Assembly: GCA_050115055.1 (NCBI GenBank)
Contig: JASFRE010000001.1
Span: forward strand, 1 to 34,960
DNA length: 34,960 nt
From: Candidatus Eiseniibacteriota bacterium
Lineage (GTDB): Bacteria > Eisenbacteria > RBG-16-71-46 > CAVPCR01 > CBDCWB01
Reading direction: 5' to 3'
Shown one piece after another: positions 2,481 through 34,785 of this stretch. Each line of letters begins with the position of its first letter. The stretch's first letter is position 1. The translations under genes and the position numbers were made by a program. The notes under the pieces are model-generated. The model did no database searches, was not told where the DNA came from, and saw only the letters and a program-made list of their open reading frames with translations.

Positions 2481-2662
2481 GGTCTGGTCCTCCGTCGGAT
2501 CGGTGAGCGGCCGGCGGGCACGACGGACATCCGGCGGGCGGAGGGTGGTCCCGCACAGACGCTGCGGCGAGTGGGCGACGGAATGCCGGCCAGCAATGGC
2601 CCCGACACTCCCAGTGTACGCCGGTGCAACGCGTCCACCCATCACCGGCGTCAGGTCGGCAG

Positions 2663-11379: not shown

Positions 11380-11882
11380 GAGGCGCCGTCGCTGTCGCGC
11401 TTCGGGTAGTCGAAGTCCATCACGACGGGAACGGTGACGTCGATGTCCGCCCAGCGGTCGACGTCGAGGCGGAGCTCGACGACTCCCGAGGTCGGCACGT
11501 TGCCGATCGGCTCGCAGTCGAACCGGTTGACCAGATCGGTCAGGTCCGGGTTGTGTCCGAACAGCATCAAGTGGTCGATCGAGTCGGGTTGCGCGCGCAC
11601 GATCTCGAGCAGCGCGTCGGCATCGCCGTGGTAGATGCGCTCGTCGAACCGGATCGCCTGGCGATCGACACCGAGCGCCTCGGCGAAGGCCGCGGCGGTC
11701 CTGCGGGCGCGGCGCGCCGGGCTCGAGAGCAGCAGGTCCGGGCGCGCTCCGCGACCGGCGACGCGCGCCGCCATGCGCGGCGCGTCGCGCTTGCCACGCT
11801 TGTTGAGCGGCCGATCGAGGTCGGGCAGGGTCGAGTCCGACCAGCTCGACTTGGCGTGGCGCACCAGGGTGACGATCTTCAT
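11376..11882 (-). CDS. sixA: SixA-type phosphohistidine phosphatase (histidine phosphatase superfamily)
   Basis: ORF 11376..12710, trimmed to the ATG at 11882, which overlaps the stop of the giant Hsp70-like gene as ATGA. It starts MKIVTLVRHAKSSW...DRPLNKRGKRDA and also has LLLSSPARRARRTA and LFGHNPDL. Confidence 0.8.
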   Translation of the reverse strand: MKIVTLVRHAKSSWSDSTLPDLDRPLNKRGKRDAPRMAARVAGRGARPDLLLSSPARRARRTAAAFAEALGVDRQAIRFDERIYHGDADALLEIVRAQPDSIDHLMLFGHNPDLTDLVNRFDCEPIGNVPTSGVVELRLDVDRWADIDVTVPVVMDFDYPKRDSDGAS

Positions 11883-15316: not shown

Positions 15317-15347
15317 CACACCAGCACCTGCCGATCCACTGTCCGGA

Positions 15348-17294
15348 TCACGTCCCGCCTCGGGACGCATCCGATGTTTCGCGCACGTTGAATTCGAGCG
15401 TCCAGCGACCGCGCCCGTCGCGGCTCACGCACCAGAGCTCCAGCGTCCCGACCTCGGTGACCCGCGAACGCAGCCTGACCGGCACCGTGCTGCCCGCCAC
15501 ACCGCCCTCCTCGTCGCCGACCGGCAGCGTGGTGGAGATCGGCGCCAGCTCCTCGATCTCGTCCGTCCAGCTCTCGACCACGGTGCCGACCTGGTCCTCC
15601 TGCCGCACGCTGGAGCCGAGGAAGCGGAACTCGACCGGTTCACCCACCACCAGACCGAACTCGGCGTCCGGCAGCTCGGCCTCCATGCCCTCCTCCATGC
15701 CGAACGGCACGACGCAGACCGCCTTGAGCGGCGCCGCCATTCCCGGCACGGCCGGCATCGACGACTCGACGCCGATGTAGTAGGAGCGCGCCGTGCCGCC
15801 GCGGATGCGGATCCCGCGCCCGCGCCGTGCCAGTCCGTAGTAGGCCGCACCGCGCGCCACCGCACGATCGAGATCGATGCCGCCGAGCGTCCGCACCGTG
15901 TCGCTCCCGGCGTCGTGTGCCCATCGTGCGAGCAGCGTCACGACACGCTCACGCATGGCCTCGGCCTTCATGACGCCGCCGTTGAACAGCACCGCGGTCG
16001 GCAGCGTCTCGCGGAGCGTGCTGTCGCCGCCGCCGCCCGCCTGCCGACCGAGAAAGTGGGCCAGGTGTCGCGTCATGGCCGGGTCCGACTCGTAGGGCAG
16101 GCCGAGCTCGCGCATGCCGGTGCGACGGCGCGACTCCGGCACCGCGTCGACCTCGCACTCCGGGAAGAAGCCGTCGACCAGCACGCGCGCGATGTCGGCC
16201 TGCTCGAGCTCGGTGCGCAGCGTGCCGCCGATGAGCTTCGAGCCGCGCCCGACGACCACCACCGGCAGTGATTGCCGGTCCGGTTCGGCCAGCAGCGCCT
16301 CCTTCGCCACCCGGCAGCTGTGCCAGAGTCCGCGCAGCTGCCAGGCATCGAGCCGGTGCCCCTCGGCGGCGAGCTTGCCGGCCACGACGTGCGCCAGCGC
16401 CAGGTCCATGTTGTCGCCGCCGAGCAGGATATGGTCGCCGACCGCCACCCGCTCCAGCACCAGCTCACCATCCTCCTCGGTGACCGCGATCAGGCTCAGG
16501 TCGGTGGTGCCGCCGCCGACATCGCAGACCAGGATGCGATCGCCGACCGCGACCTGCTCGCGCCAGGCATCGCCCTGCTGGTCGAGCCAGGCATAGAACG
16601 CGGCCTGCGGCTCCTCGAGCAGCGTCACGTGACGCAGACCGGCCTGCTCGGCGGCGCGCGCTGTCAGGTCGCGCGCCGCGGCGTCGAACGACGCCGGCAC
16701 CGTCAGGAGGATCTCCTGGTGCTCGAGACGCGCCGCCCGCTCGTCGGCCGCCATGGCGTGGTTCCACGCGTCGCGCAGATGCTCGAGATAGCGCACGGTG
16801 GCCCCGAGCGGCGACAGCTTCTCGAGCTCGGGCGGCCCCTCCCACGGCAGGATGGGGGCGGTGCGGTCGACCTCGCCGTGGCGGAGCCAGGACTTCGCCG
16901 AGGCGATGACGCGCCCCGGCACCTCGGCGCCGCGGCGACGCGCCAGCTCGCCGACCACGTACGCCCGCCCCCGCGCCCACGGCAGGTCGAGGCTGCCCTC
17001 GGGCAGATCGTGCTCGGCGGCCAGGTACAGGAACGACGGCAACAACTCGCCAGCCGAGATGTTGCCGGGCTCGTCGAGCTGCGGCACGGCGAAGAGGTGG
17101 ATGGCAGGTGTCGTGGCGTCCGCTGCCGCCGCTGACGCCTCCCCGACCGCCGTGCCCCCCGACCCCGCCTCCGACGCCGCCTCTGACTCCGCCTCGAGGT
17201 CGACGTAGGCGAGGACGCAGTGCGTCGTTCCGAGGTCGATGCCGACGATGTAGCGCGCGTCGACGGCGCGCGTGTGGTGTCGCGTGTCGTTCAT
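15348..17294 (-). CDS. Hsp70-family ATPase paralogue (non-canonical, DnaK-like NBD)
   Basis: Motifs are YIVGIDLGTTHCVLAY, SAKSWLRHGEVDRTAPILPW, LLEEPQAAFYAW, VCDVGGGTTDLSLI and LGGDNMDLALA. The C-terminal VTEVGTLELWC motif is shared with the downstream paralogue (LTEVGTLELFC). I took the ATG at 17294 as the start; the GTG at 17321 is an alternative. Confidence 0.85.
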   Translation of the reverse strand: MNDTRHHTRAVDARYIVGIDLGTTHCVLAYVDLEAESEAASEAGSGGTAVGEASAAAADATTPAIHLFAVPQLDEPGNISAGELLPSFLYLAAEHDLPEGSLDLPWARGRAYVVGELARRRGAEVPGRVIASAKSWLRHGEVDRTAPILPWEGPPELEKLSPLGATVRYLEHLRDAWNHAMAADERAARLEHQEILLTVPASFDAAARDLTARAAEQAGLRHVTLLEEPQAAFYAWLDQQGDAWREQVAVGDRILVCDVGGGTTDLSLIAVTEEDGELVLERVAVGDHILLGGDNMDLALAHVVAGKLAAEGHRLDAWQLRGLWHSCRVAKEALLAEPDRQSLPVVVVGRGSKLIGGTLRTELEQADIARVLVDGFFPECEVDAVPESRRRTGMRELGLPYESDPAMTRHLAHFLGRQAGGGGDSTLRETLPTAVLFNGGVMKAEAMRERVVTLLARWAHDAGSDTVRTLGGIDLDRAVARGAAYYGLARRGRGIRIRGGTARSYYIGVESSMPAVPGMAAPLKAVCVVPFGMEEGMEAELPDAEFGLVVGEPVEFRFLGSSVRQEDQVGTVVESWTDEIEELAPISTTLPVGDEEGGVAGSTVPVRLRSRVTEVGTLELWCVSRDGRGRWTLEFNVRETSDASRGGT

Positions 17295-17394
17295 GATGCG
17301 ATGCGTCCGCTCCGCCGCCACGGGTCGCGCGCGGCGATCAGGGTCAGGTCCGAGTCCGTTCGGCGTCCACGCATGACCCCCGCCGGGTCACGGG

Positions 17395-18303
17395 TCAACC
17401 GATCTCGACCTCGGCCGGGGCGATGATCTCCGGATCCTGGCCGCGTGCATCGGTCGGCAATTGGACCTCCTTCGCACGCCAGCCACGGTGCCGGAGCGCT
17501 CCGGTGAACGGTGGATCGCCACTGACATTGCCCGTCAGCCGGATGGCCGAGGGATCGAAACCGCTCTCGACCGTGACCTGCGTTCCTTCGTCGGCCCCGT
17601 TGACCGGCTCGATGACCAGGTGCTCCTCGAGCGCCTGCCGGCAGCCCGCGTGCACGGCGCGCACCGCCGCGCCGATCTGCGCGTCGCTGAACGACTCGAT
17701 CTCCTCGCGCAGGAAGTCGACGAGCCGCCCGTCGCGCTGCAGGACAGCGAGCAGCTGCACGGCATCGCTCCTTCGGCGTACCGGTCCCGTCTCCTCGACC
17801 GCGGGCACGCTGCCGCGGACGGCGATCCACGCGGTGAACAGCGCCGCCAGGAAGGTCCCGGCGAAGGCGGCGACGACGATCCAGCGCTCCGGAGCCTCGA
17901 CGACCTCCTGCCAGTTGCGGGGCAGCATGGCCTTCCAGTCCGGGCCGCTCGCCGAACGGCGCGGTCCGGCGGCACCGGCTCCCGGCGCAGGGCCGGTGAC
18001 CACCTCACCACCGATCGCAGCCGCGCTGTCGTCCGCGGCGTCCGCGGCGACCGCGGCCGAGTCGGCCGCCGCCTCCTCCGCCCCGAGCGCCCCGCCTGCC
18101 GTCGTGTCGGCGGCCGTCGAGTCGGCCGTGACCAGGGTCGAGTCGGCGATCACCGGCGCCGGCCCCGTCGGCGCCGCCGCTCCGACCGTGGCGCCGGCCG
18201 CCCACGCAGACCAGCGCGCCACCATCGCCACCGCCACCGCCACCAGCAGCGCGAGGAGGAGGGCGGTCGTCAGGGTTCGCAGCACGGGCACTCTCGGGCG
18301 CAT
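17395..18303 (-). CDS. DUF2760-type membrane protein
   Basis: ORF 17395..18588, trimmed to the ATG at 18303, which has GGAGGAG 3 nt upstream. It has an N-terminal TM (LTTALLLALLVAVAVAMVA), an Ala/Asp-rich low-complexity stretch and a second TM (WIVVAAFAGTFLAALFTAWIAV). The conserved C-terminal domain is LLAVLQRDGRLVDFLREEIESFSDAQIGAAVRAVHAGCRQAL...IRLTGNVSGDPPFTGALRHRGWRA. I recognise this as the DUF2760 pattern usually found next to Hsp70-like genes. Confidence 0.75.
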   Translation of the reverse strand: MRPRVPVLRTLTTALLLALLVAVAVAMVARWSAWAAGATVGAAAPTGPAPVIADSTLVTADSTAADTTAGGALGAEEAAADSAAVAADAADDSAAAIGGEVVTGPAPGAGAAGPRRSASGPDWKAMLPRNWQEVVEAPERWIVVAAFAGTFLAALFTAWIAVRGSVPAVEETGPVRRRSDAVQLLAVLQRDGRLVDFLREEIESFSDAQIGAAVRAVHAGCRQALEEHLVIEPVNGADEGTQVTVESGFDPSAIRLTGNVSGDPPFTGALRHRGWRAKEVQLPTDARGQDPEIIAPAEVEIG

Positions 18304-18818
18304 GACTCCTCCGTACAACTTGCCATGGGAATGAGACTTAAGGGGATCACTGGAGTCCCGGCCGGGCAACGATGGGCCGGGCGGAGCGATCGCAGTGTTC
18401 GTCTCGCCGATGCGACCGCGGATTGTCGCACGGGTCGGCAGCGGGGGGAAGCCTCGCCTCCGACCGCGCCCGGTGGCACGGCGGGCGTCCGGGCCACCAC
18501 GTGGCCAGCGGCCGCACGCGGCGGTGGCACCATGGCCTGGGCCCCGGCCGTCTCGCGTGACCGTCTCAATCGTCTGATCTCGACCCACTCAACCGTCTCA
18601 GATGTGGAATCCCTGCAGCATGGATCTACAATGGCCGATCTGAATCTCTGAAGGCGTGGTTGCAGGAATGGCCCAGGGCCGCAAGGATGGGCCCGGCGGC
18701 CACGACCGGATCGGGGCGCCGTGGTGGTGGCGTCCAGGGTACCCCCGGAGTCGCGCCAGCTCCGACCCTCCAGCAGCGTGGCGGCGTGCCGGGCACGACC
18801 GCTGGCAGCGAGCCGACG

Positions 18819-24045: not shown

Positions 24046-27000
24046 CTACTTCATGAGCACCATCTTCCGGGTCCGCGACGCGTCACCGGCCGTGACCCGG
24101 TAGAAGTAGATCCCCGACGACTGACCGCTCGCGTCCCACAGCACCTGCCGCACGCCGGCCGGCTCGACCCCGTCGACCAGCCGCGTCACGTGCTGTCCCC
24201 GCACGTTGAAGACGTCGACCGTGACGTGGCGCGCCTCGGGCAGCTCGTAGCTCAGGCGGGTGATCGGATTGAAGGGGTTCGGCAGGTTCGGTCGCACCGC
24301 GAAGCGGAGCGGCAGACCGGAGGCCGCCGGCCCGCCGACCGCCGTCGTCGAGCCGCCGATGCTCGGCACGAAGCGGATCGCCCGCCCCTGGGTCAGCGTC
24401 GCCGCCCCCGGGACGTAATCGTTCCAGTAGGTGTAGAGCAGGCCGTCGGAGTGATCGTGGTTCTGGATGCCGACCGACGCGTAGCCGTTCACGGGATCGT
24501 AGTTCTGCACCGTCTGGTACTGGAACTCGATGATCCCGTCACCGGTCGCCGTCGTGTGATAGGCCGGATCGTAGAGGATCACCTCGAAGGTCTCGGTGGC
24601 GCCGTTGTAGTCGTTGCGGAAGCGGCTCCACTCGATCGTCCAGGTGTGCGCGCCGCTGTCGTAGTGCTCGAACGCCTTCGACGAGCCGCTCGACTGGTAG
24701 AGGTTGTCCCAGAACGGGCAGAGCATCGCGTTGGGACCGCCGGCGCTCGGCAGCGACCAGTTGCGGTAGTTGGTGAGGTAGGTCTCGCCCATCGCCAGCC
24801 AGCCGTTCGAGCAGACCGTCGCCCGGTCGTAGTCGACGCCGTAGTAGCGGAAGGTGAACGGCAGGTCGACGATGCGCGACCGGTCCTGGTAGCCGCCGTA
24901 GTCGCCGAGCACCACCTCGGTGCCGTTGCCACCGTAGGTCGGGTCGAGCTCGATCCAGCTGTAGGTCGGCGCCTCGTCGTAGGCGGTATCCGTGTTGTCG
25001 AATGCCATGTAGCCGTAGGCATCGGGACCGAACGGGTCGTCCGTGGCCAGCTGACCGACCGGCACGGTCACGTACGCCGTGTCGACCGCGCCGCCCGAGA
25101 ACGACGTGATGACCAGCAGGCCGGCCTGGTGTCCCTCGTAGGTGTTGGCGGCGGCGCTCACGCCGAAGCGGTCGACCGTGTTCTCGCCCGCCCCGCCGAT
25201 CGAGATCGTGCCGAACGAGCCGGTGCCGTCGGTCACGGTGACGAACGGACTCGTCGAGACCAGCGTGCCGGTGATGCCCGTAGCGGTCACGCCGCCGGTG
25301 TTGACCAGCTGGACACTCAGCTCGATCGATTCGCCCGGATCGAGGAGGCCGTTGCCGCCGGCGTTATAGAGCGTGGTGCCGTGCGCACCGAGGGCGGCCG
25401 AGACAACCGGCAGCTCGAACTGCGAGTCCCAGCGCGTGAGCCCCGAGGTGACTGCCAGGTCGAAACGCAGGACGTGGCCGTCGGGGCAACCGCCGCTCAC
25501 GGTGAAGTCGAAGTCGTCCGCGCTCCACGCCGTGGCCCCGGCGGCGATGTTGCCGAAGATCTCCTCGGCGTCGGTGACCGTCACGTAGGGATCGCTGGAG
25601 CTGAGCGTCGCCTCGACGCCGGCCGCGGTATTGACCCCGAAGTTCCGGAGCAGCGTGCGGAGCTCGATCGATTCGGTCGGGTTGAGCTGCCCGTTGCCGT
25701 TGCCACTGCTGGTGCCGTTGCCGTCGTCATCGATGCCGAGGCTCTCGTAGCCGACGTAGATGTCGTACTGCACCACCGGCACCGTCGCCAGGAACGCGTG
25801 ACGGTTGCGCTGGGTCACCGTGAGCTGGAGATCGCCCGCCACGGCCTGATCGATCAGCAGATCGGCCCTGCCCGCGGCGTCCGTGAAGGCCACCACCGGC
25901 TCGCCGCCGTCGACCAGGGCACAGACCTGCGCACCGGCAGCCGGGGCGTCACCCGGTCCGGTCACGACGATCGGCAACGTGTTGGCCCCGACCGGCAGCT
26001 CGGACGGGTGGGAGACGGTGAACGGATCGGGATAGGCCTGGTAGACCTCGAGCGCGGGATCGCCCATCAGGTTGTTCCAGTAAGCCCAGATCTCCGCCTC
26101 CTGCGGCTCGCTGTTGCCGTAGCAGAGCCAGAGCTCGATCTTGCCGCGGGTCAGCGCCGCGCCCATCGTCAGCTCGTCGCGGATCAGGCCGTGCCACACA
26201 CCGTAGTAGATGCAGTTGTTGTAGCGCGTGTGCGTGCCGCTCGTGGCGGTGCCGATGGCGCCGATCCCGCCCCTCACGCCGGTCGCGCCGCTGCCGGCGC
26301 GCAGGAACCCCTCGGAGCGCGACGTGCTCGAGGCGAACGAGCCCGTGCCACAGGTCATGATGACGCAGAACGGCATCTCCCAGCCGTTGGTCAGCTGGTA
26401 GGTATCGGCGTTGCCCCAGCCGCTCATCCCTAGCCAGCCGCGGTAGCCGAAGACGGTGTCGCCACGATCGAGGGCCTCGCCCATCAGGTAGTCGAAGTTG
26501 CCGGAGAAGACCGTGTCGACCTCGGTGTAGCCGATCTCCAGCAGGCGCTCCTTGACCCACTGGTTGATGATCACCGTGCTCTGTCCCGAGCTCGACGGGT
26601 CACCGACCACGCAGCCACGCGTGAACCAGCCGGGATCATCCAGCATCGGTGGGTCGGTCTCGTAGCCGACGATCTTGTTGACGATGCGCTCGAGCTCGAC
26701 CAGGTCGCTGCCGTTGAACGACAGACGACCGATGTGCACGTCGGAGAGGATGTCGGAGCCCTCGAGAGTCGTGTAGGGATGATCACCTTCCCCGTGGTAG
26801 AAGCTCAGGTTCTCGTAGAAGCACGGCAGCGCGTAGGTGCCGCTGGCGTCGCCGACCAGCGTCACGTACTCCAGATTGAGCGACGGATCGTCGTAGACGC
26901 CCTGGATGAAGTTCTTGATCGAGGTCGTCGAGGTGCCGGTCTGGGCAGTGGTGGCAAAGAGGACCGGCGATCCCTTGCGCTGGCGCCACTCGATCAGCGG

Positions 27001-27771
27001 TTGCAGTCGGTCGATGACATTGGCGTTGTTGTAGCAGATCAGGAGATCGGTGCCGGGCGCGATCGACTGCGAGGCGTCCGGTCCCTCGTAGTTGACGACC
27101 ACGTCGCGGTAGATGCGGTCGAAGCTCGGCGGGATCGTCGAGCGCCGGACGCGGCGGGCGGCACGCGGGTCATCGCCCGTGAACGCGACCTCGACTCGCA
27201 TCCGACGGGTGATCTCCAGCGTGCGCGTCGCGGCGTTGTAGCGCACCGGCCGGAAGGTCAGGTCGACGACGCGGAGATCGCGCAGCACCGCCGGTTCGCC
27301 GACCGTCACGCGCTCCCCCGTGCCGCCGGTGTCCCCCGAGATCAGAGCGTCGCGCGCATAGGCCGCCTCGTCGTAAACGAAGGCGGCGTTCGGATCACCG
27401 TCCTGGAGCGGTGCCAGGAACACGTTGTCCCGCGTCTCGACCTCGAGGGGCTCGACGGTCACCTCCACCCCGCGACCGTCGGGAACCGCCACGAAACGTG
27501 AGAAGTTCGGGATCGCCGGCGCCCCGATGTCGCCAGCCAGCCCGCCACCGGCGATCGAGATCACGTCGAAGGCACGACCCGCCATCTCGACGGTCGCCGA
27601 CTTGAGCTCGGGCAGCTCGAGCTCGAGGCGCACGCCCTCGGAGGTGGTGTCGGTGACCTGGATGCTGGGCATCTCCCCGGCGGGCGGCAGCATGAGGGCA
27701 TCCTCGAATGCCAGCGCAGGGAGGGCGAACATCAGACAGCAGAGCACGCCGATCGGGACGAGACGACGCAT
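24046..27771 (-). CDS. Peptidase C25 (gingipain-like cysteine protease) with propeptide, two CARDB-like repeats, an extra beta-rich domain and a FlgD-Ig/T9SS-like C-terminal domain
   Basis: GGAGGA lies 4 nt upstream of the ATG, followed by the signal peptide MRRLVPIGVLCCLMFALPALA. Gingipain-type segments are YVTLVGDA, HGEGDHPYT and FCVIMTCGTGSF (candidate catalytic Cys). Tandem repeats are NPTESIELRTLLRNFG...VTVTD and DPGESIELSVQLVNTG...VTVTD. The tail is LPNPFNPITRLSYELPEARHVTVDVFNVRGQHVTRLVD...GIYFYRVTAGD. Confidence 0.85.
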   Translation of the reverse strand: MRRLVPIGVLCCLMFALPALAFEDALMLPPAGEMPSIQVTDTTSEGVRLELELPELKSATVEMAGRAFDVISIAGGGLAGDIGAPAIPNFSRFVAVPDGRGVEVTVEPLEVETRDNVFLAPLQDGDPNAAFVYDEAAYARDALISGDTGGTGERVTVGEPAVLRDLRVVDLTFRPVRYNAATRTLEITRRMRVEVAFTGDDPRAARRVRRSTIPPSFDRIYRDVVVNYEGPDASQSIAPGTDLLICYNNANVIDRLQPLIEWRQRKGSPVLFATTAQTGTSTTSIKNFIQGVYDDPSLNLEYVTLVGDASGTYALPCFYENLSFYHGEGDHPYTTLEGSDILSDVHIGRLSFNGSDLVELERIVNKIVGYETDPPMLDDPGWFTRGCVVGDPSSSGQSTVIINQWVKERLLEIGYTEVDTVFSGNFDYLMGEALDRGDTVFGYRGWLGMSGWGNADTYQLTNGWEMPFCVIMTCGTGSFASSTSRSEGFLRAGSGATGVRGGIGAIGTATSGTHTRYNNCIYYGVWHGLIRDELTMGAALTRGKIELWLCYGNSEPQEAEIWAYWNNLMGDPALEVYQAYPDPFTVSHPSELPVGANTLPIVVTGPGDAPAAGAQVCALVDGGEPVVAFTDAAGRADLLIDQAVAGDLQLTVTQRNRHAFLATVPVVQYDIYVGYESLGIDDDGNGTSSGNGNGQLNPTESIELRTLLRNFGVNTAAGVEATLSSSDPYVTVTDAEEIFGNIAAGATAWSADDFDFTVSGGCPDGHVLRFDLAVTSGLTRWDSQFELPVVSAALGAHGTTLYNAGGNGLLDPGESIELSVQLVNTGGVTATGITGTLVSTSPFVTVTDGTGSFGTISIGGAGENTVDRFGVSAAANTYEGHQAGLLVITSFSGGAVDTAYVTVPVGQLATDDPFGPDAYGYMAFDNTDTAYDEAPTYSWIELDPTYGGNGTEVVLGDYGGYQDRSRIVDLPFTFRYYGVDYDRATVCSNGWLAMGETYLTNYRNWSLPSAGGPNAMLCPFWDNLYQSSGSSKAFEHYDSGAHTWTIEWSRFRNDYNGATETFEVILYDPAYHTTATGDGIIEFQYQTVQNYDPVNGYASVGIQNHDHSDGLLYTYWNDYVPGAATLTQGRAIRFVPSIGGSTTAVGGPAASGLPLRFAVRPNLPNPFNPITRLSYELPEARHVTVDVFNVRGQHVTRLVDGVEPAGVRQVLWDASGQSSGIYFYRVTAGDASRTRKMVLMK

Positions 27772-28362
27772 GATTTCCTCCGCAATGGGAACGAAGACCG
27801 GGACTGGGCCACGGTCGCGCGGGTCATGAACTCGACGGCCTCGACACGGGATCCATCGGAGATGACCACGCGTGCCGGGGTCCGGCGCTGACGGACAGGG
27901 CGACCATCCGGGACGTCGCGGCGCCAGGAACGCACGCGTGTCCCGAGCCAGGGGCCTCCAGGGTTGCTTTGTCTACCCCGGCCGTGGGTGAGCCGCATGT
28001 CGGTCCTCGACGCGCGAGACCTGCGGGGGGCGGGACAGGGCAGCTGTGCAGGGGGCCTCGAGGCTACGAGGCAATGTGCAAGCCTCCCAAGATCTTAGCG
28101 GATCTGGCCGGGATGCGCCAGCGGCAGGTGCGGGGAACGGCCGGGAGCCGGCGCCGGCACGATGGGTCGAGGTCCGCCAGCAATCCTGCGCAGGACTGAG
28201 AACGGGTCGCGATAGCGATCGAACCGCGGCTCGCACCGGGTCTCCGCTCGCCTTCGGAGGTCATGCACAACGTCTTCCGCGCCAACGAGATGGCCGTGCG
28301 ACGCGGCTGCATCGATCACCGACGGTGAATCAATACATGAAGATTTCCCGCTAACTGTCTAC

Positions 28363-28372
28363 TCCTATAGGA
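28363..28372. promoter_or_regulatory. Perfect 10-bp palindrome TCCTATAGGA in an AT-rich patch upstream of the Rrf2 gene; candidate operator next to a TATGAT -10-like hexamer (28377-28382)
   Basis: Seen directly. It lies 55 bp upstream of the Rrf2 ATG, in one of the few AT-rich islands of the window. Rrf2-family regulators commonly autoregulate via palindromic sites. Confidence 0.35.
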
Positions 28373-28426
28373 CTGATATGATTTCGTGAATCCACGTACT
28401 CACAGCCCGTTCCGGCGAGAGGCCCG

Positions 28427-28897
28427 ATGAAGCTGCGCACGCGCGCCCGATACTCGCTCCGCATGATGATGGCCATCGCCAGCCTGTCATCGGACGGGCG
28501 GCACGTCGGTCTCGGCGAGGTCGCGAGCCGCTGCTCGATCTCGCGCAAGTACCTCGAGCAGCTGGTCACGGCGCTGCGCAACGCGCAGCTCGTGCGCGCC
28601 CACGCCGGCCGCAGCGGCGGCTACGCGCTGGCCCGGCGACCGGACGAGATCCGGGTGCGCGAGATCATCGAGGCCGCCATCGGCCCGATCGCCGTCACCG
28701 ATTGCGCCGGCGATCCGGGGAGCTGCGGCTACGCCGAGTTCTGTCACTGCTGGGGGCTGTGGTCGCTGATCAATCACCGCGTCACCGAGGTCCTGGACGA
28801 GCACACGCTCGCGGACATTTTGGACGACGACTGGCTCGGCAAGGTGCGGGAGGAGCTCGACGGACCGCGACGCGCCGGCAGCGAGACGACCGCCTAG
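28427..28897 (+). CDS. Rrf2 family transcriptional regulator (IscR/NsrR-like, probable Fe-S cluster ligands)
   Basis: GAGAGG lies upstream of the ATG. MKLRTRARYSLRMMMAIA....ISRKYLEQLVTALRNAQLVRAHAGRSGGYALARRPDEIRVREIIEA is a classical Rrf2 wHTH. The Cys cluster is C-x6-C-x5-C-x-C (TDCAGDPGSCGYAEFCHC). Confidence 0.9.
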   Translation: MKLRTRARYSLRMMMAIASLSSDGRHVGLGEVASRCSISRKYLEQLVTALRNAQLVRAHAGRSGGYALARRPDEIRVREIIEAAIGPIAVTDCAGDPGSCGYAEFCHCWGLWSLINHRVTEVLDEHTLADILDDDWLGKVREELDGPRRAGSETTA

Positions 28898-28957
28898 CTT
28901 CCGGTCCGACGGTCCCACGGCCGGGCCGTCGCCCGGCCAGAGGAGGGCAAACGGGGC

Positions 28958-29905
28958 ATGATGGCCATCCAGATCCTGACCTACGTGTGCGCGGCGATCT
29001 TCGTCGCCTTCTGTGTCGCGCGTGCAGTCCGCTACGCGCGCACGCCGCTCCATCTGCGCTGGGAGCTCTACCCGGTCGCGCACGAGAAGGGCCGGGCCGA
29101 ATACGGCGGCTCGATCTTCGAGGAGCTCGACTGGTGGACGAAGCCGCGTGAGATCGACCGGCTGAACGAGGCGAGCGAGATGTTCAAGGAGATCGTCCTC
29201 CTGAAGGGCGTGCGCCGCAACAACCCGGGCCTGTGGAGGTTCTCCTTCCCGTTCCACTTCGGTCTCTACATGGTGATCGTCTGGCTGGCCCTGCTGGTGG
29301 TGCTCGGCATCCTCGCCGCCGCCGGCGTCACGTTGGGCCCGGCCCTGTCACGCGCCACCGAGCTCGTGCTCGCCGTGACCGGCTACGGCGGTCTGCTGCT
29401 GACCGGGATCGGCGCCCTCGGCCTGCTCGTCCGCCGCCTCGGCGACGCAGAGCAGCGCCGCTACAGCGCCCCGGTCGAGTTCCTGAACCTGGCGTTCTTC
29501 CTGGTGGTGGTGGTGGTCGCCCTCTACGTGCAGGCGACCACCGACCCCTGGTTCCGCGGGCTCGGTGCCTTCTTCGCCTCGCTGGCGGCCTTCCGGCCGC
29601 CCGCGTCTCCGGTGTCGGCCGGGCTCCAGCTGCACGTCGCGCTCGGTGCACTGCTCATGGCCTACATCCCGCTCACGCGCATGTCGCACTTCGTCGCCAA
29701 GTACTTCCTGTATCACGACGTCCGCTGGTCGGACGATCCCAACCCGCGCGGCAGCGCCATCGAGGGCAGGGTCAAGAACGCCTTCGGCTACCGCATGCAC
29801 TGGACCGCCCCTCACATCCAGACCGGCAGGTCCTGGGGTGAGGTCGGCACGACGAGCCCCGAGCAGGACGCCGGGGAGCCCCGCCGCGAGGAGGCCAAGT
29901 CATGA
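28958..29905 (+). CDS. NarI-like membrane cytochrome b subunit (DsrM/HmcE/HmeC-type)
   Basis: GAGGAGGG lies 9 nt upstream of the ATG. There are about 5 hydrophobic helices with conserved His residues (PLHLRWELYPVAHEKG, FPFHFG, LQLHVALGALLMAYIPLTRMSHFVAKYFLYH). It has a 4-bp ATGA overlap with the HdrD-like gene. Confidence 0.7.
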   Translation: MMAIQILTYVCAAIFVAFCVARAVRYARTPLHLRWELYPVAHEKGRAEYGGSIFEELDWWTKPREIDRLNEASEMFKEIVLLKGVRRNNPGLWRFSFPFHFGLYMVIVWLALLVVLGILAAAGVTLGPALSRATELVLAVTGYGGLLLTGIGALGLLVRRLGDAEQRRYSAPVEFLNLAFFLVVVVVALYVQATTDPWFRGLGAFFASLAAFRPPASPVSAGLQLHVALGALLMAYIPLTRMSHFVAKYFLYHDVRWSDDPNPRGSAIEGRVKNAFGYRMHWTAPHIQTGRSWGEVGTTSPEQDAGEPRREEAKS

Positions 29906-31509
29906 ACCGGCACGACCTCAAGATCACCGACATCTCCAGGGCGGGCGAGCAGCTGACGCACATCGATCCGGCCGACCTCCAGCCGCTGCCGCATCCCTAC
30001 GAGGACTGGCAGGACAAGGGGATCTCCGAGCTCTCCGACGCCAAGCGCGCCAGCGCCGAGACCTCGCTCGACGGCATCATCGGCATGCGCATTCCGGTCC
30101 CGGAGACGGCGGAGGAGAAGGAGCGTCTGACCCGGAAGTTCCTGGCCGGCGTCGAGCGTCTGTTCAACGCCGAGGACAACTGGACCTTCCTGCAGCCGCT
30201 CCTCCTGTCGATGGAGAGCTGCGTCAAGTGCAACACCTGCGCCGAGGCCTGTCCCATCTTCGAGTCGAGCGGACGCAACGAGATCTACCGGCCGCTGTTC
30301 CGCGCCGAGATCCTCCGGCGCATCGCGCAAAAGCAGCGCTCGCCGCTCAACGGCATCCTCGGCAAGCTCCAGGGTTCGAACATCGACGTCACCTGGGAAA
30401 CGGTGGCGCGGCTCGGCGACCTCGCCTATCGCTGCACGCTCTGCCGGCGCTGCGCCCAGGCCTGCCCGATGGGCTGCGACAACGGCCTCATCGCACGCGA
30501 GCTCAGGAAGATCTTCTCGCAGGAGCTGGGACTGGCGCCCGACGAGCTGCATACCGACGGCACCGTGAAACACCTCAAGGTCGGCTCCTCGACCGGGATC
30601 AACCCGCATGCACTCATGGACATCCTCGAGTTCGCCGAGGAGGACATCGAGGACCGCATCGGCATGAAGATCAAGATCCCGATCGACAAGGCCGGGGCCG
30701 ACATCCTGATCATGCACAACGCCGGGGAATTCCTCTCCTGGCCGGAGAACCTCGAGGCCTTTGCCATCCTGTTCGAGCTCGCCGGGCTCTCCTGGACGAT
30801 CTCCAGCGACCTGGTCGGCTACGACTCGGTCAATTACGGTCTCTTCTACGACGACATCCAGTACACCCGCGTCACCATGAAGCACGCCGAGGTGGCGAAG
30901 AAGCTCGGCGTCAAGAAGGTGGTGATGGGCGAGTGCGGACACGCTCACAAGGCCTTCATGGCCACCGGCGACCGGATGTGGGTCGACGATCTCAACATTC
31001 CGCGCGAGAGCGCTCTGACGCTCATGGAGGACCTGGTCTGCAACGAGAAGATCATGGTCGATCCGTCGCGCAACGACTTCCCGGTGACCGTGCATGACCC
31101 GTGCAACATCGTACGCTCGATGGGCATCGTGCAGCCGCAGCGGCGCGTGCTCGAGAAGATCTGCCCGCAGTTCCGCGAGATGACTCCGCACGGCGTCGAC
31201 AACTACTGCTGCGGCGGCGGCAGCGGCTTCGCCATCATGCAGTCGAACAACTTCCCCGACTGGCGGATGCAGATCGCCGGTCGCAAGAAGTTCGCCCAGA
31301 TCCTGGGCGCCTTCCAGGACTGCATCTCGCCGGACGTGAACAAGTACGTCTGCGCGCCCTGCTCGAACTGCAAGGGTCAGATCCGGGATCTATTGACCTA
31401 CTACGACGCCTGGAATCGGACTAGAATCCTCTACGGTGGGCTCGTCGAGCTGGTGGTCAACGCCATGGTGGATGTCCGGGAGGGCTTCCTGGAGTGGGAG
31501 TTCCACTAG
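29902..31509 (+). CDS. HdrD/DsrK/HmcF-like (Fe-S)-binding protein with two 4Fe-4S ferredoxin motifs and CCG domains
   Basis: Motifs are CVKCNTCAEACP and CTLCRRCAQACP, then HDPCNIVR, YCCGGGSGF and CAPCSNCKGQ (CCG-type Cys motifs of heterodisulfide reductase D-like proteins). Confidence 0.85.
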   Translation: MNRHDLKITDISRAGEQLTHIDPADLQPLPHPYEDWQDKGISELSDAKRASAETSLDGIIGMRIPVPETAEEKERLTRKFLAGVERLFNAEDNWTFLQPLLLSMESCVKCNTCAEACPIFESSGRNEIYRPLFRAEILRRIAQKQRSPLNGILGKLQGSNIDVTWETVARLGDLAYRCTLCRRCAQACPMGCDNGLIARELRKIFSQELGLAPDELHTDGTVKHLKVGSSTGINPHALMDILEFAEEDIEDRIGMKIKIPIDKAGADILIMHNAGEFLSWPENLEAFAILFELAGLSWTISSDLVGYDSVNYGLFYDDIQYTRVTMKHAEVAKKLGVKKVVMGECGHAHKAFMATGDRMWVDDLNIPRESALTLMEDLVCNEKIMVDPSRNDFPVTVHDPCNIVRSMGIVQPQRRVLEKICPQFREMTPHGVDNYCCGGGSGFAIMQSNNFPDWRMQIAGRKKFAQILGAFQDCISPDVNKYVCAPCSNCKGQIRDLLTYYDAWNRTRILYGGLVELVVNAMVDVREGFLEWEFH

Positions 31510-31544
31510 AAATCCGACCATTCCGGTGACGCGCATCGGATTTC
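31509..31544 (+). other. 9-bp perfect inverted repeat GAAATCCGA-N18-TCGGATTTC immediately after the dsrK-like stop
   Basis: Seen directly. It overlaps the last base of the stop codon and sits 31 nt before the HEAT gene ATG. It could be an RNA stem-loop (attenuator or processing site) or a protein-binding site. Confidence 0.35.
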
Positions 31545-31575
31545 CCGCTCCGGGCTCCATGAGGAGCCACGCCAG

Positions 31576-32373
31576 ATGGGACTCTTCGCCAAGCACGATC
31601 ATCATCACTCCGACCCCCGCGTGCGCCTCGAGGCGATCGGCACCCTCGATGACGAGCGCGAGCTCGTCGAGGTGGCCTGCACCGACGACTCGCCGCGGGT
31701 GCGCATGGCAGCGGTCGAGCGACTGACCAGCGACGCCGCCCTCGCCGAGGTCGCCAAGGACGCCGCCGAGATCGACGTACGGCTGGCGGCCGTCGAGCGC
31801 ATCGGCTCCGAGCCGGTGATCGCCGGGATCCTGAAGGCGCGCAAGAACTACCAGCTGATGGGCGCCTGCTTCGCGCGCATCACCGACCGCGCGGTGCTCG
31901 AGTCGATCGCCCAGGACCCGGGCTACAACCCGACCGCGCGCCGCATGGCGGTCGAGCAGTTCGCCGACGAGTCCTACCTGACCGACCTGGCGCCCGCCGG
32001 CGCGGGCGGCGACGAGGACGGCGCAGGTCTCGACGAGGCGACGATCGCCGCCCTGCTCGAGCAGTACGGGGATGTGCGCGTCGTCCGCGCCGTCGGTCGC
32101 TTCCGCCGCAGCGAGAAGGCGCTCAGGGCGCTCGGCGTCGTGGCGCGGCGCGGCGGCGAGGCGGGCGGCCTGGCAGTCGAGTACCTCTGCCGTGCCCTGG
32201 CCAGCTCGAACCCGTCGGTACGCGAGTGCGCGGCGGATCAGCTCTCCGGGCTCGCCGATCCGGAGCTCGTGGCCCAGCTCATCCGCGCGCTCGACGAACC
32301 CAAGCTGCACGCGCCGATCCGCGACATCCTGCGGCGGATCGACACGCCGGAGGCGCGCGCAGCGCTCGGGTAG
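31576..32373 (+). CDS. HEAT-repeat (PBS-lyase HEAT-like) protein
   Basis: Repeated D/N-P-x-VR-x-x-A motifs occur: DPRVRLEAI, SPRVRMAAVERL, DVRLAAVERI, NPTARRMAVEQF and NPSVRECAADQL. GAGGAG lies upstream of the ATG. Confidence 0.7.
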   Translation: MGLFAKHDHHHSDPRVRLEAIGTLDDERELVEVACTDDSPRVRMAAVERLTSDAALAEVAKDAAEIDVRLAAVERIGSEPVIAGILKARKNYQLMGACFARITDRAVLESIAQDPGYNPTARRMAVEQFADESYLTDLAPAGAGGDEDGAGLDEATIAALLEQYGDVRVVRAVGRFRRSEKALRALGVVARRGGEAGGLAVEYLCRALASSNPSVRECAADQLSGLADPELVAQLIRALDEPKLHAPIRDILRRIDTPEARAALG

Positions 32374-32425
32374 CAGCGTCCGGCCGGTGCCGGAGCGGCG
32401 GCCTGAAGGTCCGAGGAGGCTCACG

Positions 32426-32824
32426 ATGCCGAAGACGATCCTGGTCATCGACGACGAGAAGGACATGCGCGTCTACCTGAGCACGCTGTTCAGACAGGCC
32501 GGCTACGAGGTGGTGACCGCCGACAACGGTGAGGAGGGCCTGCGACTGGCCCGCGAGACGCCGCCGGACCTGATCACGCTCGACGTCCTGATGCCGCGCA
32601 AGTCCGGTGTCCGCGCCTACCAGGAGCTCAGGCACGCGCCCGAGACCCGGGACGTGCCGATCGTCATCCTGACCGGGCTCGCCCAGCAGCAGGACCTGTT
32701 CGGCGAGGAGCTGGGATCGCTGCCGCGCCCGGATGCGATCTGCGACAAGCCGATCGACCGTGAGGTCTTCCTCGGGCGCGTGAAGGGGCTGCTCGGCGAC
32801 GCCGTGTCGACCGACTCGAGCTGA
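32426..32824 (+). CDS. Single-domain CheY-like response regulator receiver
   Basis: ORF 32072..32824, trimmed to the ATG at 32426, which has GAGGAGG 6 nt upstream. Motifs are MPKTILVIDDEKDMR, PDLITLDVLMPRKSG (phospho-acceptor Asp), PIVILTG and CDKP. Confidence 0.85.
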   Translation: MPKTILVIDDEKDMRVYLSTLFRQAGYEVVTADNGEEGLRLARETPPDLITLDVLMPRKSGVRAYQELRHAPETRDVPIVILTGLAQQQDLFGEELGSLPRPDAICDKPIDREVFLGRVKGLLGDAVSTDSS

Positions 32825-32949
32825 CACGATCCCGCGCGCGCTTCCGGCGTCGGCCCCACGGCCGGCCGGGATCGCCTCCCCGACGCGGGAACGTCTGACC
32901 CCGCTGACGGAGGCAATCGGGGGCGCGAGTGGACGGAGCGACGTGACCG

Positions 32950-34785
32950 ATGGCGACCGAGGTGACAGGCCAGCGCGACGACCGCTCCCGCCGCGCGCGG
33001 ACCGATGGCCGGCCAGCAGCGCCGGGCAACGAGGCGGCCGCGCCGGCGCGTGCGCCGCGCTCCGGCCAGCCCAGCTCCGTCGAACCGCGGTCCGTCGAGC
33101 CGCGGCACGGCGAGCTGCGGCCCGACCCGCCGCGCCGCCCGACGGTGGCCTGGCGCTCGCGGCACGCGGCCGGCTTCGTGGCCGGCAGCGTGGCGCTGGC
33201 GGCCGCGGTCACCATCGCCGCCGGACACCTGCCGCCGCTCGTGATCGGCATCGGCCTCGCCGCGGCGCTGGTCGGCCTCGGCGCCCTGACGTTGCCGCCG
33301 CGTTCCGCCGCCCCGTCCGATCGCGGCACCGGCTGGCGCCACGCCATGCCCTGCCACGTCTCGGTGCAGGACCGCGATCTCCGCATCATCGAGACCAACC
33401 AGCTCTTCCAGCGCGACTTCGGTGATCGCGAAGGCGAGCACTGCTACGCGGTCTACAAGAAGAGCGACGCGCCCTGTCCGGCGTGCCCGGTGCTCCGGAC
33501 CTTTGCCGACGGCGAGGTGCATACGAGCGAGGAGACGGTCATTGCACGCGATGGCCGGCGGGCGCACGTCGTCGTCACCTCGGCGCCGGTCCTCGATGAG
33601 CACGGCGCGGTGAGCGCGGTCATGGAGATGTCCACCGACGTCACCGAGCTCAAGAACCTGCAGCGCGAGCTCGAGCAGAGCCGCCGGGACTTCAAGCGGC
33701 TCTTCGAGGCGGTGCCCTGCCACATCTGCGTGCTCGATCGCGATCTGCGCATCATCGGCGCCAACCGGCTCTACCAGCAGGACTTCGACGTGACGCCCGG
33801 CCGCCGCTGCTTCGAGGTCTGCAAGCACGCACCGGAGCCCTGCCCGGATTGCCTGGTGGCCCACACCTTCGAGGATGGCCGGATCCACTCGAGCGAGGAG
33901 ACGCTGACCACCGGCGACGGCCGCCAGCTCGACCTCGTCGTGCACTCGATGCCGGTGCGCGACGATGCGGGCGCGATCACCGCGGTCATGGAGGTGTTCA
34001 CCGACATCACCGAGGTCAAGAAGCTCCAGCGCCAGCTGACGCTGATGGGACGGGCGGTCGCCGGCATGGCCCATCGCATCAAGAACATCCTGATGGGACT
34101 CGAGGGCGGCATCTACGTCGTCAACACCGGCATGCAGTCGGACGATCGGGAGCTCCTCGACGAAGGCTGGCGCATGGTCGAGACCAACGTCAACAAGGTG
34201 TCGCGCCTGGTCAAGGACCTCCTCTACTGCTCCAAGGAGCGCCAACCGAAGTTCAAGGACGGCGTCAGCCCGCAGGAGATCGCGCGCCAGGTGCACGAGC
34301 TCTACGCCGGTCGCGCGTCCGACGCCGGCATCGACTTCGAGCTCGAGATCGGCGAGGCTCCGACCCGCGGCACGTTCGATCCCGACGGACTCTTCAACCT
34401 CCTCTCCAACCTGATCGCCAACGCCATCGACGCCTGCCGGTTCGACCCCGACGAGACGAAGACCGCGCACACGATCTTCCTGCGGTGCCATCAGGAGACC
34501 GGCGACCACACCGTGTTCGAGGTCGAGGACGACGGCGTCGGCATCCCCGAGGACGTGAGCGGCAAGGTCTTCGAGGACTTCTTCTCGACCAAGGGCACCG
34601 AGGGCACCGGCATCGGGCTGCTGGTCGTGCAGAAGGTCGCCGAGGAGCACGGCGGCACCGTCAGCTTCTCGACCCGCCAGGGAACCGGCACGCGCTTCCG
34701 CGTCATGCTGCCGCCGCGCCGGCCCGGCGTGGGGACCGGCCCGGCGGCGACGGGGCGCGGCGACGAGGCGGCGGGCGACCGGTAG
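32950..34785 (+). CDS. Membrane-anchored sensor histidine kinase with two tandem Cys-rich PAS-like domains
   Basis: High third-position GC runs from the ATG at 32950. There is a hydrophobic segment (FVAGSVALAAAVTIAAGHLPPLVIGIGLAAALVGLGALTL). Two homologous about 115-aa PAS-like units follow. The kinase core has an H box (AGMAHRIKNIL), N box (NLLSNLIANAIDA), G1 (VEDDGVGIPED) and G2 (STKGTEGTGIGL). Confidence 0.85.
   Translation: MATEVTGQRDDRSRRARTDGRPAAPGNEAAAPARAPRSGQPSSVEPRSVEPRHGELRPDPPRRPTVAWRSRHAAGFVAGSVALAAAVTIAAGHLPPLVIGIGLAAALVGLGALTLPPRSAAPSDRGTGWRHAMPCHVSVQDRDLRIIETNQLFQRDFGDREGEHCYAVYKKSDAPCPACPVLRTFADGEVHTSEETVIARDGRRAHVVVTSAPVLDEHGAVSAVMEMSTDVTELKNLQRELEQSRRDFKRLFEAVPCHICVLDRDLRIIGANRLYQQDFDVTPGRRCFEVCKHAPEPCPDCLVAHTFEDGRIHSSEETLTTGDGRQLDLVVHSMPVRDDAGAITAVMEVFTDITEVKKLQRQLTLMGRAVAGMAHRIKNILMGLEGGIYVVNTGMQSDDRELLDEGWRMVETNVNKVSRLVKDLLYCSKERQPKFKDGVSPQEIARQVHELYAGRASDAGIDFELEIGEAPTRGTFDPDGLFNLLSNLIANAIDACRFDPDETKTAHTIFLRCHQETGDHTVFEVEDDGVGIPEDVSGKVFEDFFSTKGTEGTGIGLLVVQKVAEEHGGTVSFSTRQGTGTRFRVMLPPRRPGVGTGPAATGRGDEAAGDR

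Follow-up and report, generated by a model that had tools for sequence, protein, structure and literature searches.

A cluster of six genes was analyzed in contig JASFRE010000001.1 of a Candidatus Eiseniibacteriota assembly (GCA_050115055.1), within a stretch of 34,960 nt (positions 1 to 34,960 of the forward strand) which is referred to here as the window. The cluster is read on the + strand and encodes an Rrf2 regulator (28427-28897, 156 aa), a NarI-like membrane subunit designated M2 (28958-29905, 315 aa), an iron-sulfur (Fe-S) subunit with a CCG domain designated K2 (29902-31509, 535 aa), a HEAT-repeat protein (31576-32373, 265 aa), a single-domain receiver (32426-32824, 132 aa) and a sensor histidine kinase (32950-34785, 611 aa). 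The gaps between consecutive genes are 60, -4, 66, 52 and 125 nt, the negative value being an ATGA overlap of M2 and K2 at 29902-29905, and GC content at third codon positions (GC3) was 0.93-0.94 in five of the six open reading frames (ORFs), with the receiver unscored. A first-pass annotation had described six co-directional genes with short gaps and this overlap and had assigned a protein type to each. Its layout and coordinates were all confirmed and its assignments were right gene by gene, Pfam and NCBIfam agreeing on Rrf2, NarI-like, CCG, HEAT, receiver and PAS kinase proteins. The module is a member of a widespread family of DsrMK paralogues which has been named but is uncharacterised in the literature, and it is not a new system.

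The K2 protein carries Fer4_8 and CCG domains. Two CX2CX2CX3C motifs for [4Fe-4S] clusters (C107/110/113/117 and C178/181/184/188), a GECGH motif (G343-E-C345-G-H347) and one complete five-Cys CCG motif (C401, C436, C437, C487 and C490) were found together with an extra cysteine, C484, and in an alignment of 83 family members both [4Fe-4S] cysteine sets, the GECGH motif, C401, C436-C437, C484, C487 and C490 were all invariant. A lone CCG motif together with the cysteine of GECGH (Cys329/His331 in A. fulgidus) defines DsrK-type enzymes (PMC10861901). In the DsrK of dsrMKJOP clusters the last CCG cysteine is replaced by a strictly conserved aspartate (Asp500), while A. fulgidus homologues in dsrMK-only arrangements retain the cysteine at this position (PMC10861901). 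A cryo-electron microscopy preprint describes Cys329, His331 and Asp500 as the conserved catalytic trio of DsrK and suggests that the aspartate tunes the cluster for a perthiosulfenate intermediate (10.64898/2026.08.25.746951). The Asp500 position is occupied in the K2 family by the invariant Cys490, in TmcB-like proteins also by Cys, and by Asp in the seven of seven true DsrK sequences that were aligned. Because the Cys/His pair is present yet Cys490 stands at the Asp position, K2 is, judged by its motifs, a DsrK-type enzyme and not a JOP-type DsrK.

On NCBIfam models K2 scored 345.3 bits for DsrK (NF045796; cut-off 400), 212 bits for TmcB (cut-off 735) and 192 bits for HmcF (cut-off 750), against 16-25 bits for GlpC (cut-offs ~278), 30 bits for LutB and 45 bits for LdhH. 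True DsrK ORFs at other loci (designated by L numbers from the survey described below) reached 721 bits (L037) and 746 bits (L028) on the DsrK model, and a TmcB-like ORF scored 707 bits. A neighbour-joining tree was built from the family sequences and all other K-like ORFs of the same loci; it was rooted on E. coli GlpC and otherwise contained no reference sequences from cultured organisms. The K2 clade (bootstrap 99/100) and the DsrK clade (100/100) were separate in this tree, the K2 clade also stood apart from TmcB-like, HmcF-like and other sub-threshold DsrK-like paralogues, and GlpC was a distant outgroup. The proposal of the first-pass annotation that the pair forms an MK core was borne out by both the scores and the tree, in which K2 goes with DsrK, TmcB and HmcF and not with GlpC or LutA. 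K2 as a true DsrK was rejected on the sub-cut-off score, the Cys at the Asp500 position and the separate clade. Also rejected were HmcF or TmcB, since both scores are far below the cut-offs and there is no multiheme cytochrome in the window, and a GlpC/LutA-type oxidase subunit, on the low model scores, the single CCG domain and the outgroup position of GlpC.

An AlphaFold2 model of K2 (mean predicted local distance difference test score, pLDDT, 81.7) had as its best structural matches EtfD of M. smegmatis (9ojn; TM-score 0.56 on the query, E = 3.7e-12, 17% sequence identity), a LutA model in second place and HdrB (5odc_B), and the modelled fold is of the HdrD/HdrB CCG type. A sequence search of the PDB with K2 gave one weak match, again EtfD, and no DsrK structure was found. 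Among solved structures mycobacterial EtfD thus comes nearest to the K2 model, and it belongs to the same Fer4 and CCG superfamily with a membrane cytochrome b-like domain attached; unlike K2 it is a fused single polypeptide, and its partner is an electron-transfer flavoprotein (ETF) and not a sulfur carrier.

M2 passed the cut-off of PF02665 (Nitrate_red_gam; 39.9 bits, cut-off 22.9) and failed that of the DsrM model NF038037 (19.1 bits, cut-off 300). Its AlphaFold2 model had a pLDDT of 78.8 (>90 over the helices), the top eight PDB matches in a Foldseek search were all NarI chains (probability 1.00 each), and the predicted structure is the five-helix NarI fold; a PDB sequence search with M2 returned nothing meaningful and no DsrM structure was found. 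In NarGHI, H56 and H205 ligate the proximal heme bP and H66 and H187 ligate the distal heme bD. When M2 was aligned with E. coli NarI and the true DsrM of the same loci, H100 corresponded to H56 and H244 to H205, the equivalent of H66 was Leu110, and the equivalent of H187 was H226, which is present in the window protein. Among 98 M2 sequences (that of the window and 97 representatives from clustering at 50% identity) histidine was found at the H56, H66, H187 and H205 equivalents in 100%, 2%, 40% and 98%, respectively. The same pattern was seen in 74 locus-derived sequences, the H187 equivalent being His in 30-40% of the family, while true DsrM from the same loci retains all four heme histidines. 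By these alignments M2 retains the proximal-heme pair only and the distal pair is lost family-wide. The DsrM-like cytochrome b of the first-pass annotation therefore holds for one bis-His pair (H100/H244) and not for the distal one, and the canonical ligands of M2 give no support for a cytochrome b with two hemes. M2 as a true DsrM was rejected on its score and the missing distal histidines.

Compared with E. coli NarI, with which it shares the five-helix fold and the proximal ligands, M2 lacks the H66 equivalent, is variable at the H187 equivalent, and has as its partner a CCG protein rather than NarGH. A conserved cytoplasmic loop of 65 residues (residues 25-92) and a tail of 70 residues also set M2 apart; H32, H286 and numerous aromatic positions in them are invariant, and H286 is shared with DsrM. 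The loop and tail probably form the interface with K2. A NarI-like periplasmic quinol site has been predicted for the DsrM of DsrMK-only complexes (DsrM-1; 10.64898/2026.08.25.746951). The absence of the distal-heme ligands makes such a site doubtful in M2, and quinone exchange may take place nearer the cytoplasmic side.

To place the pair among its relatives, loci were surveyed in one genome per species. This gave 80 loci with K homologues 54-81% identical to K2 of the window, in more than ten phyla which included Myxococcota, Acidobacteriota, Thermodesulfobacteriota, Chloroflexota, Planctomycetota, Gemmatimonadota, Ignavibacteria, Zixibacteria and Krumholzibacteria among others, the best K2 matches being from Myxococcota. 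A protein-database search with K2 returned >5,000 proteins at E <= 1e-20, paralogues included, which were annotated just as '(Fe-S)-binding protein', and relatives of M2 fell into 146 clusters at 50% identity (E <= 1e-30). The M and K genes were adjacent for 80 of 83 related sequences (loci plus window). The order Rrf2-M-K-HEAT-RR-HK or M-K-HEAT-RR-HK (RR, response regulator; HK, histidine kinase) recurred at about 15 loci in several phyla, so that the synteny with the regulators expected by the first-pass annotation is conserved in relatives, and the six-gene arrangement is not due to chance.

Genes of the dsr system were frequent neighbors. A dsrC-family gene lies directly 5' of M2 in 14 of the 72 loci with room for one, and 11 of these are two-Cys dsrC genes ending ...GACKxAGLxKPTGCV, in Dehalococcoidia, Syntrophales, Ignavibacteria, Gemmatimonadota and others. 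The arrangement dsrAB-dsrN-(dsrL)-dsrC-M2-K2, with or without a true dsrMKJOP after it, recurs in Syntrophales, Dehalococcoidia, Ignavibacteria and others. At a Terriglobia locus (L037) the order is dsrL-dsrC-(ORF)-dsrM(484 bits)-dsrK(721 bits)-J-O-P-M2-K2-sat, and this is one of seven loci (L023, L028, L029, L039, L035, L037, L051) where M2K2 and a true dsrMKJOP are found together. When only the 41 loci with >=6 kb on each side were counted, dsrAB was present in 12, and dsrAB, dsrC, cytochrome c3 or another K paralogue in 28. The other three of the 14 are DsrC-like genes with CysB only, directly 5' of M2K2 in Dehalococcoidia and Syntrophorhabdales loci (L061:6618-6953, L065:1214-1555, L079:177-497); their products lack the C-terminal PTGCV cysteine and end ...PSFLYP or ...GLLYP, a truncation opposite to that of the L081 variant described below.

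The characterised system closest in kind is DsrMK of DsrMKJOP, a menadiol:DsrC-trisulfide oxidoreductase (AF0501/AF0502 in A. fulgidus; PMC10861901, 10.64898/2026.08.25.746951), which like M2K2 pairs a NarI-fold subunit with a cytoplasmic subunit from overlapping or abutting genes. DsrK and K2 have in common the two [4Fe-4S] motifs, the one CCG motif and the GECGH Cys/His pair, and members of the M2K2 family are linked to dsrC and dsrAB. They differ in Cys490 for Asp500, the extra invariant Cys484, 345 bits against 721-746 bits on the DsrK model and the separate clade; M2 differs from DsrM in its 19 bits and the missing distal-heme pair, and no JOP subunits accompany M2K2.

Second MK pairs without JOP have been published as dsrM2/dsrK2 or DsrMK-only paralogues (PMC6018796, PMC6372793, PMC10504309, PMC8477390). 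'dsrMK-paralogs (dsrM2, dsrK2)' were reported in Acidobacteria and Desulfosporosinus, an 'alternative DsrMK type' has also been described, and a basal DsrMK-only clade coexists with DsrMKJOP in Deltaproteobacteria, with DsrAB absent in 7 of 74 assemblies (PMC10504309). Like M2K2, these pairs lie in dsr clusters (Acidobacteriota, Deltaproteobacteria, others), at times beside dsrMKJOP, and some carriers lack dsrAB. A JOP-less MK pair in or beside dsr clusters was found at 11 named loci of the M2K2 family, and not at the window locus, which has no dsr genes. The M2K2 family probably corresponds to the 'dsrM2K2' or DsrMK-only paralogues of the literature, the match being one of gene arrangement and description only. 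These four papers mention no function, cofactor analysis or Rrf2/HEAT/RR/HK cassette for dsrM2K2. What is new here is the loss of the distal ligands throughout the family, the Cys at the Asp500 position together with Cys484, the Rrf2 operator candidate and a cassette common to Hmc-like operons.

The closest relatives of the window (K2 72-81% identical) share the unit (Rrf2)-M2-K2-HEAT-RR-HK-RR, seen at L001, L003/L081, L004-L007, L087, L088 and the P0020 locus, and dsrAB was not seen within 8-10 kb at any locus of this subclade. In a Myxococcota metagenome-assembled genome (L081:1-14692, K2 79% identical; also L003, L002 and L082) the unit closes a co-directional 15-gene block in the order PAS-kinase, HdrA-like FAD protein, FlpD/MvhD-Fer4, HdrD-like CCG, DsrC-like, MetV, MetF, RR, Rrf2-M2-K2-HEAT-RR-HK-RR. 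By gene order and annotation this block ties the MK module to genes for methylene-tetrahydrofolate reductase and Hdr-like proteins, and its DsrC-like protein, encoded 4 kb from the MK pair, is a single-Cys variant (…GKIAGLPKSTGCA). At L001, L087, L088 and the P0020 locus an Hmc-like operon lies beside the cassette and encodes a NarI-like protein of 215 aa, a CCG protein of 439-444 aa, a multiheme cytochrome c3, Fer4_11 and NrfD proteins and a DVU_0533 peptide. An unusual order of this operon, with a ~422-aa unknown protein first, was noted at L087:14875-21614, L089:328-7537, L090:787-7504 and L091:138-7451, where it adjoins the HEAT-RR cassette.

In the window itself, tblastn of all 34,960 nt found no dsrC, dsrAB, MetF, Hdr-like or K-paralogue gene, and no cytochrome c gene is present. 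The first-pass description of a stand-alone module of unknown substrate did not stand, since members of the family adjoin two-Cys dsrC, dsrAB, dsrN and dsrMKJOP in many other genomes. It was weakened further by the closest relatives, which have an Hmc-like operon or a DsrC-like gene within 10 kb, and by the position of the cluster, since the contig ends 175 nt past the kinase stop codon. As the window ends right after the kinase, the absence of Hmc-like, Hdr-like or MetFV partners there cannot be judged. The stand-alone look is partly lineage-specific and may also be in part a contig-end effect. In relatives the gene after the kinase is another single-domain receiver, and no start of such a gene was found in the final 175 nt of the window. 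A segment near the contig end (34886-34925, cttgacattttgtttagataaatttattgacacg) is AT-rich in a contig of 70% GC, with two TTGACA boxes, and is probably the promoter of the next gene beyond the contig end.

The Rrf2 protein matched PF02082 (107.7 bits) and TIGR00738 (104.4 bits) and fell under the cut-offs of the IscR, CymR, NsrR and RirA equivalog models. Three of its cysteines (C93, C100 and C106) were invariant in eight orthologues and C108 is also present, a pattern which fits the Fe-S cluster-binding members of the family, with the cluster itself a prediction. Rrf2 occupies the same position in L001, L003, L004, L006, L010, L081 and L087. Reading of the upstream sequence and a pattern search gave a near-palindrome, ACTCCTATAGGACT (28361-28374, no strand), 53-66 nt 5' of the Rrf2 start codon, with a perfect palindromic core TCCTATAGGA at 28363-28372. 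The pattern CTCCTA-N(0-12)-TAGGA occurred six times in 1.25 Mb (loci plus window), in every case 41-65 nt 5' of an Rrf2 start: in the window, in L003 and L006, and in L081 and its duplicates L002 and L082. A one-mismatch variant was found in L010, and in relatives the palindrome overlaps TTGAC/TATAAT-like hexamers. The confinement of this pattern to Rrf2 upstream regions supports its reading as a candidate operator for autoregulation of the operon. Rrf2 and the divergent C25 peptidase gene are separated by an unusually long intergenic region (27772-28426, 655 bp) without an Rfam or tRNA match; its last ~70 nt contain an AT-rich segment and the palindrome. Scans of the window for sigma-70 promoters and terminators gave nothing useful for the operon.

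The HEAT-repeat protein (HEAT and HEAT_2 matches) belongs to a small and specific family of 337 matches, 54-93% identical and ~260-280 aa long, and its gene is directly 3' of K2 in 11 of 71 loci. Conserved cysteine or histidine residues were looked for among its homologues and none were found, on which ground a metal or cofactor protein was rejected; its probable role is that of a scaffold or adaptor within the signalling cassette. The more divergent members (54-58% identical) do not adjoin M2K2; they are part of RR-HEAT-RR(-HK) cassettes immediately 3' of Hmc-like operons, and at L089-L091 these cassette-bearing operons adjoin a sigma-54 activator and dsrAB…dsrL. The Hmc-linked cassette proteins were 59-66% (RR) and 58-63% (HK) identical to those of the window. 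The occurrence of orthologous cassettes after Hmc-like operons points to the HEAT-RR-HK cassette as a portable unit for the control of membrane complexes of the MK type.

The receiver (PF00072, 71.5 bits) has no output domain, and an acidic pocket, a phospho-acceptor Asp (D53), Thr and Lys could be read from its sequence; its best NCBIfam match was the DVU0259/DivK family (89.9 bits, below the cut-off of 160). The kinase has two PAS_4 domains with four cysteines each (C135/C165/C176/C179 and C257/C287/C298/C301) in the spacing C-x29-C-x10-C-x2-C, of which C257, C287, C298 and C301 were conserved at 92-100% in 24 homologues. A conserved H-box (H375) is followed by HATPase_c (90 bits), so that kinase and receiver between them present the H-box, ATPase domain and acceptor Asp of a two-component system at the sequence level. 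The first ~130 residues of the kinase (32950-33345) are Arg/Pro-rich with two hydrophobic segments and are unconserved in homologues (474-552 aa); GC3 of this part was 0.88-0.98, consistent with coding, and the true start codon is uncertain.

The analogy to the D. vulgaris hmc operon drawn in the first-pass annotation gained strength from these results. There rrf1 and rrf2 regulate hmc (PMC10924467), and HmcEF with rrf1/rrf2, as also TmcBC, resemble the window in that an Rrf2 regulator and a receiver protein go with an MK-type pair; the window receiver best matches the DVU0259 family, and the orthologous RR-HEAT-RR-HK cassette follows the Hmc-like operons of L089-L091. Unlike Hmc and Tmc, the window has no multiheme cytochrome c, HmcB, HmcC or HmcD, and it has in addition a HEAT protein and a kinase of its own. 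At L060 a 575-aa HmcF/TmcB-like CCG protein (L060:3964-5691, - strand) has a DVU0259-type receiver fused at its C-terminus (HmcF 354 bits, residues 7-434; receiver 80 bits, residues 454-572). This fusion supports direct contact between receiver and enzyme and by analogy hints that free single-domain receivers act by contacting HdrD-like enzymes directly. A similar paralogue of 586 aa was noted, without a domain scan, at L050:11885-13645 (- strand).

On what was observed of its domains, cofactor motifs, clade, conserved gene order and operator-like motif, we are on balance inclined to take the cluster as a DsrMK-paralogue ('dsrM2K2'-type) membrane complex with its own regulators. In the scheme that we infer for its substrate, direction of electron flow, heme number and regulatory wiring, the M2 membrane anchor would exchange electrons with the menaquinone pool through at least one b-type heme at H100/H244 on the cytoplasmic side. 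Electrons would pass between menaquinone/menaquinol, this heme, the two [4Fe-4S] clusters and a non-cubane cluster, the latter presumably held by the complete five-Cys CCG motif beside the GECGH cysteine, with C345 assisting. K2 would then reduce, or in the reverse direction oxidise, a protein-bound sulfur species such as a DsrC-type carrier in trisulfide, persulfide or disulfide form. The presence of the pair inside dsr clusters of other genomes makes a DsrC-type carrier the most likely substrate. Transcription would probably be repressed by the Fe-S Rrf2 at the palindrome 5' of its own gene. As a second layer of control the 4-Cys-PAS kinase, presumably sensing redox or Fe-S state, would phosphorylate the output-less receiver, which may act by protein contacts with the HEAT protein and/or a K-type subunit.

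Several observations weigh against this scheme. Genes for dsrC, dsrAB and cytochromes are absent from the window, and in its subclade DsrC is either absent from the flanks examined or is the single-Cys protein 4 kb away (L081/L003). K2 lies below the DsrK cut-off, has Cys in place of Asp500 and coexists with true dsrMKJOP in seven loci, and it may for these reasons not catalyse the same reaction as DsrK. M2 lacks the distal-heme ligands, which leaves its NarI-like periplasmic quinol site in doubt, and EtfD, the closest solved structure, uses an electron-transfer flavoprotein rather than a disulfide.

A possible though doubtful alternative is that M2K2 is the organism's functional, minimal JOP-less DsrMK, that is the menaquinol:DsrC-trisulfide reductase of a sulfite or sulfate reducer carrying out the same reaction as DsrMKJOP. 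At L025, L033, L069 and L078 the pair follows dsrAB-N-(L)-C, where dsrMK canonically stands (the layout of L050 is the same, with only one dsrAB-type ORF detected), the scanned flanks of these loci contained no other DsrK-clade or DsrK-like paralogue except an HmcF/TmcB-like ORF in L050, and their dsrC genes have both cysteines. The retention of Cys at the Asp position by dsrMK-only DsrK homologues (PMC10861901) and the basal DsrMK-only clade beside DsrMKJOP in Deltaproteobacteria (PMC10504309) fit this account as well, though K2 was set beside that published clade by description and not by sequence. The tandem arrangement with true dsrMKJOP in seven loci, in contrast, argues for a non-redundant role of M2K2. 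M2 also lacks the distal ligands needed for the NarI-like periplasmic quinol site predicted for DsrM-1, and dsrAB is missing within 8-10 kb in the window and its closest relatives.

The all-Cys ligation of K2, the coexistence with dsrMKJOP and the mono-heme M2 together suggest a separate disulfide/persulfide valve role. In a fairly unlikely version of this idea, M2K2 of the window lineage would be a DsrAB-independent redox valve, a mono-heme and possibly non-electrogenic, reversible quinone:protein-disulfide oxidoreductase linking the menaquinone pool with a thiol carrier (DsrC-like or another) for Hdr-like, MetFV or Hmc-like modules of the cytoplasm. The 15-gene block of L081/L003 with its Hdr-like, single-Cys DsrC-like, MetV and MetF genes and the Hmc-like operons beside the cassette in L001, L087, L088 and the P0020 locus fit such a role, as do the family-wide loss of the distal heme ligands and an all-Cys CCG ligation which resembles that of TmcB and of the disulfide-cleaving HdrB and not the Asp ligation of the perthiosulfenate-handling DsrK. 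However, the basis for this valve is gene neighbourhood and motif inference, the same family sits in dsrAB operons elsewhere, and the window has none of those partner genes. Distinctly unlikely in its full form is the most specific proposal, that M2K2, far from being a redundant DsrMK, is a menaquinone:DsrC-type-disulfide oxidoreductase which has a single heme, is reversible and non-electrogenic and holds its non-cubane cluster by Cys alone. Its activity as well as its transcription would be gated by a phosphorelay from the 4-Cys-PAS kinase to the receiver and on to the HEAT adaptor or the K subunit, and in window-like lineages it would be a DsrAB-free redox valve connecting the quinone pool and the Hdr-like, MetFV or Hmc-type modules of the cytoplasm.

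A GlpC/LutA/EtfD-like dehydrogenase anchor with no thiol or sulfur role, passing electrons from a soluble dehydrogenase or flavoprotein to the quinone pool, is very improbable, for although EtfD and the LutA model lead the structural matches of K2 and EtfD is its sole PDB sequence match, the GlpC, LutB and LdhH scores are low against the 345 bits of DsrK, GlpC is a distant outgroup, K2 has one complete CCG motif and the invariant GECGH typical of DsrK, TmcB and HmcF, and no dehydrogenase or ETF gene adjoined M2K2 in ~90 loci, where the recurring neighbors were dsrC, dsrAB and hmc-like genes.

The dsrM2K2-type complex favored here belongs to the DsrMK-type modules, which join sulfur respiration to the quinone pool of the membrane and of which many sulfur-cycling organisms have several paralogues. 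The M2K2 family is very widespread, is unusually conserved across phyla, and departs from characterised DsrMK at two mechanistically loaded points, the Asp/Cys cluster ligand and the distal heme ligands. Its study could help to explain the parallel DsrC-reducing complexes of sulfate reducers and their regulation.

The remainder of the window contains unrelated housekeeping or secreted proteins, the neighbors of the cluster including a C25 peptidase with a type IX secretion system (T9SS) tail, a Na/Ala symporter, Hsp70-like proteins and MgtE among others, and Rfam and tRNA scans of the whole window gave zero matches. The peptidase (24046-27771, - strand, 1241 aa) is of the gingipain type with a Por/T9SS C-terminal sorting domain. 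PKD and FlgD-Ig domains were seen on secreted proteins near it, and 3-2645 (- strand) and 5546-6487 (+ strand) belong to the same observation. These domains hint at a host of ~70% GC from a T9SS-bearing group (FCB superphylum or Gemmatimonadota-like) and not from Myxococcota, the source of the best K2 matches. The products of three adjacent genes at 11879-18588 (- strand) are a 1163-aa Hsp70-like protein with DUF3731, another Hsp70-like protein of 657 aa and a 397-aa DUF2760 protein, and this trio looks like a conserved, non-canonical Hsp70 cluster.

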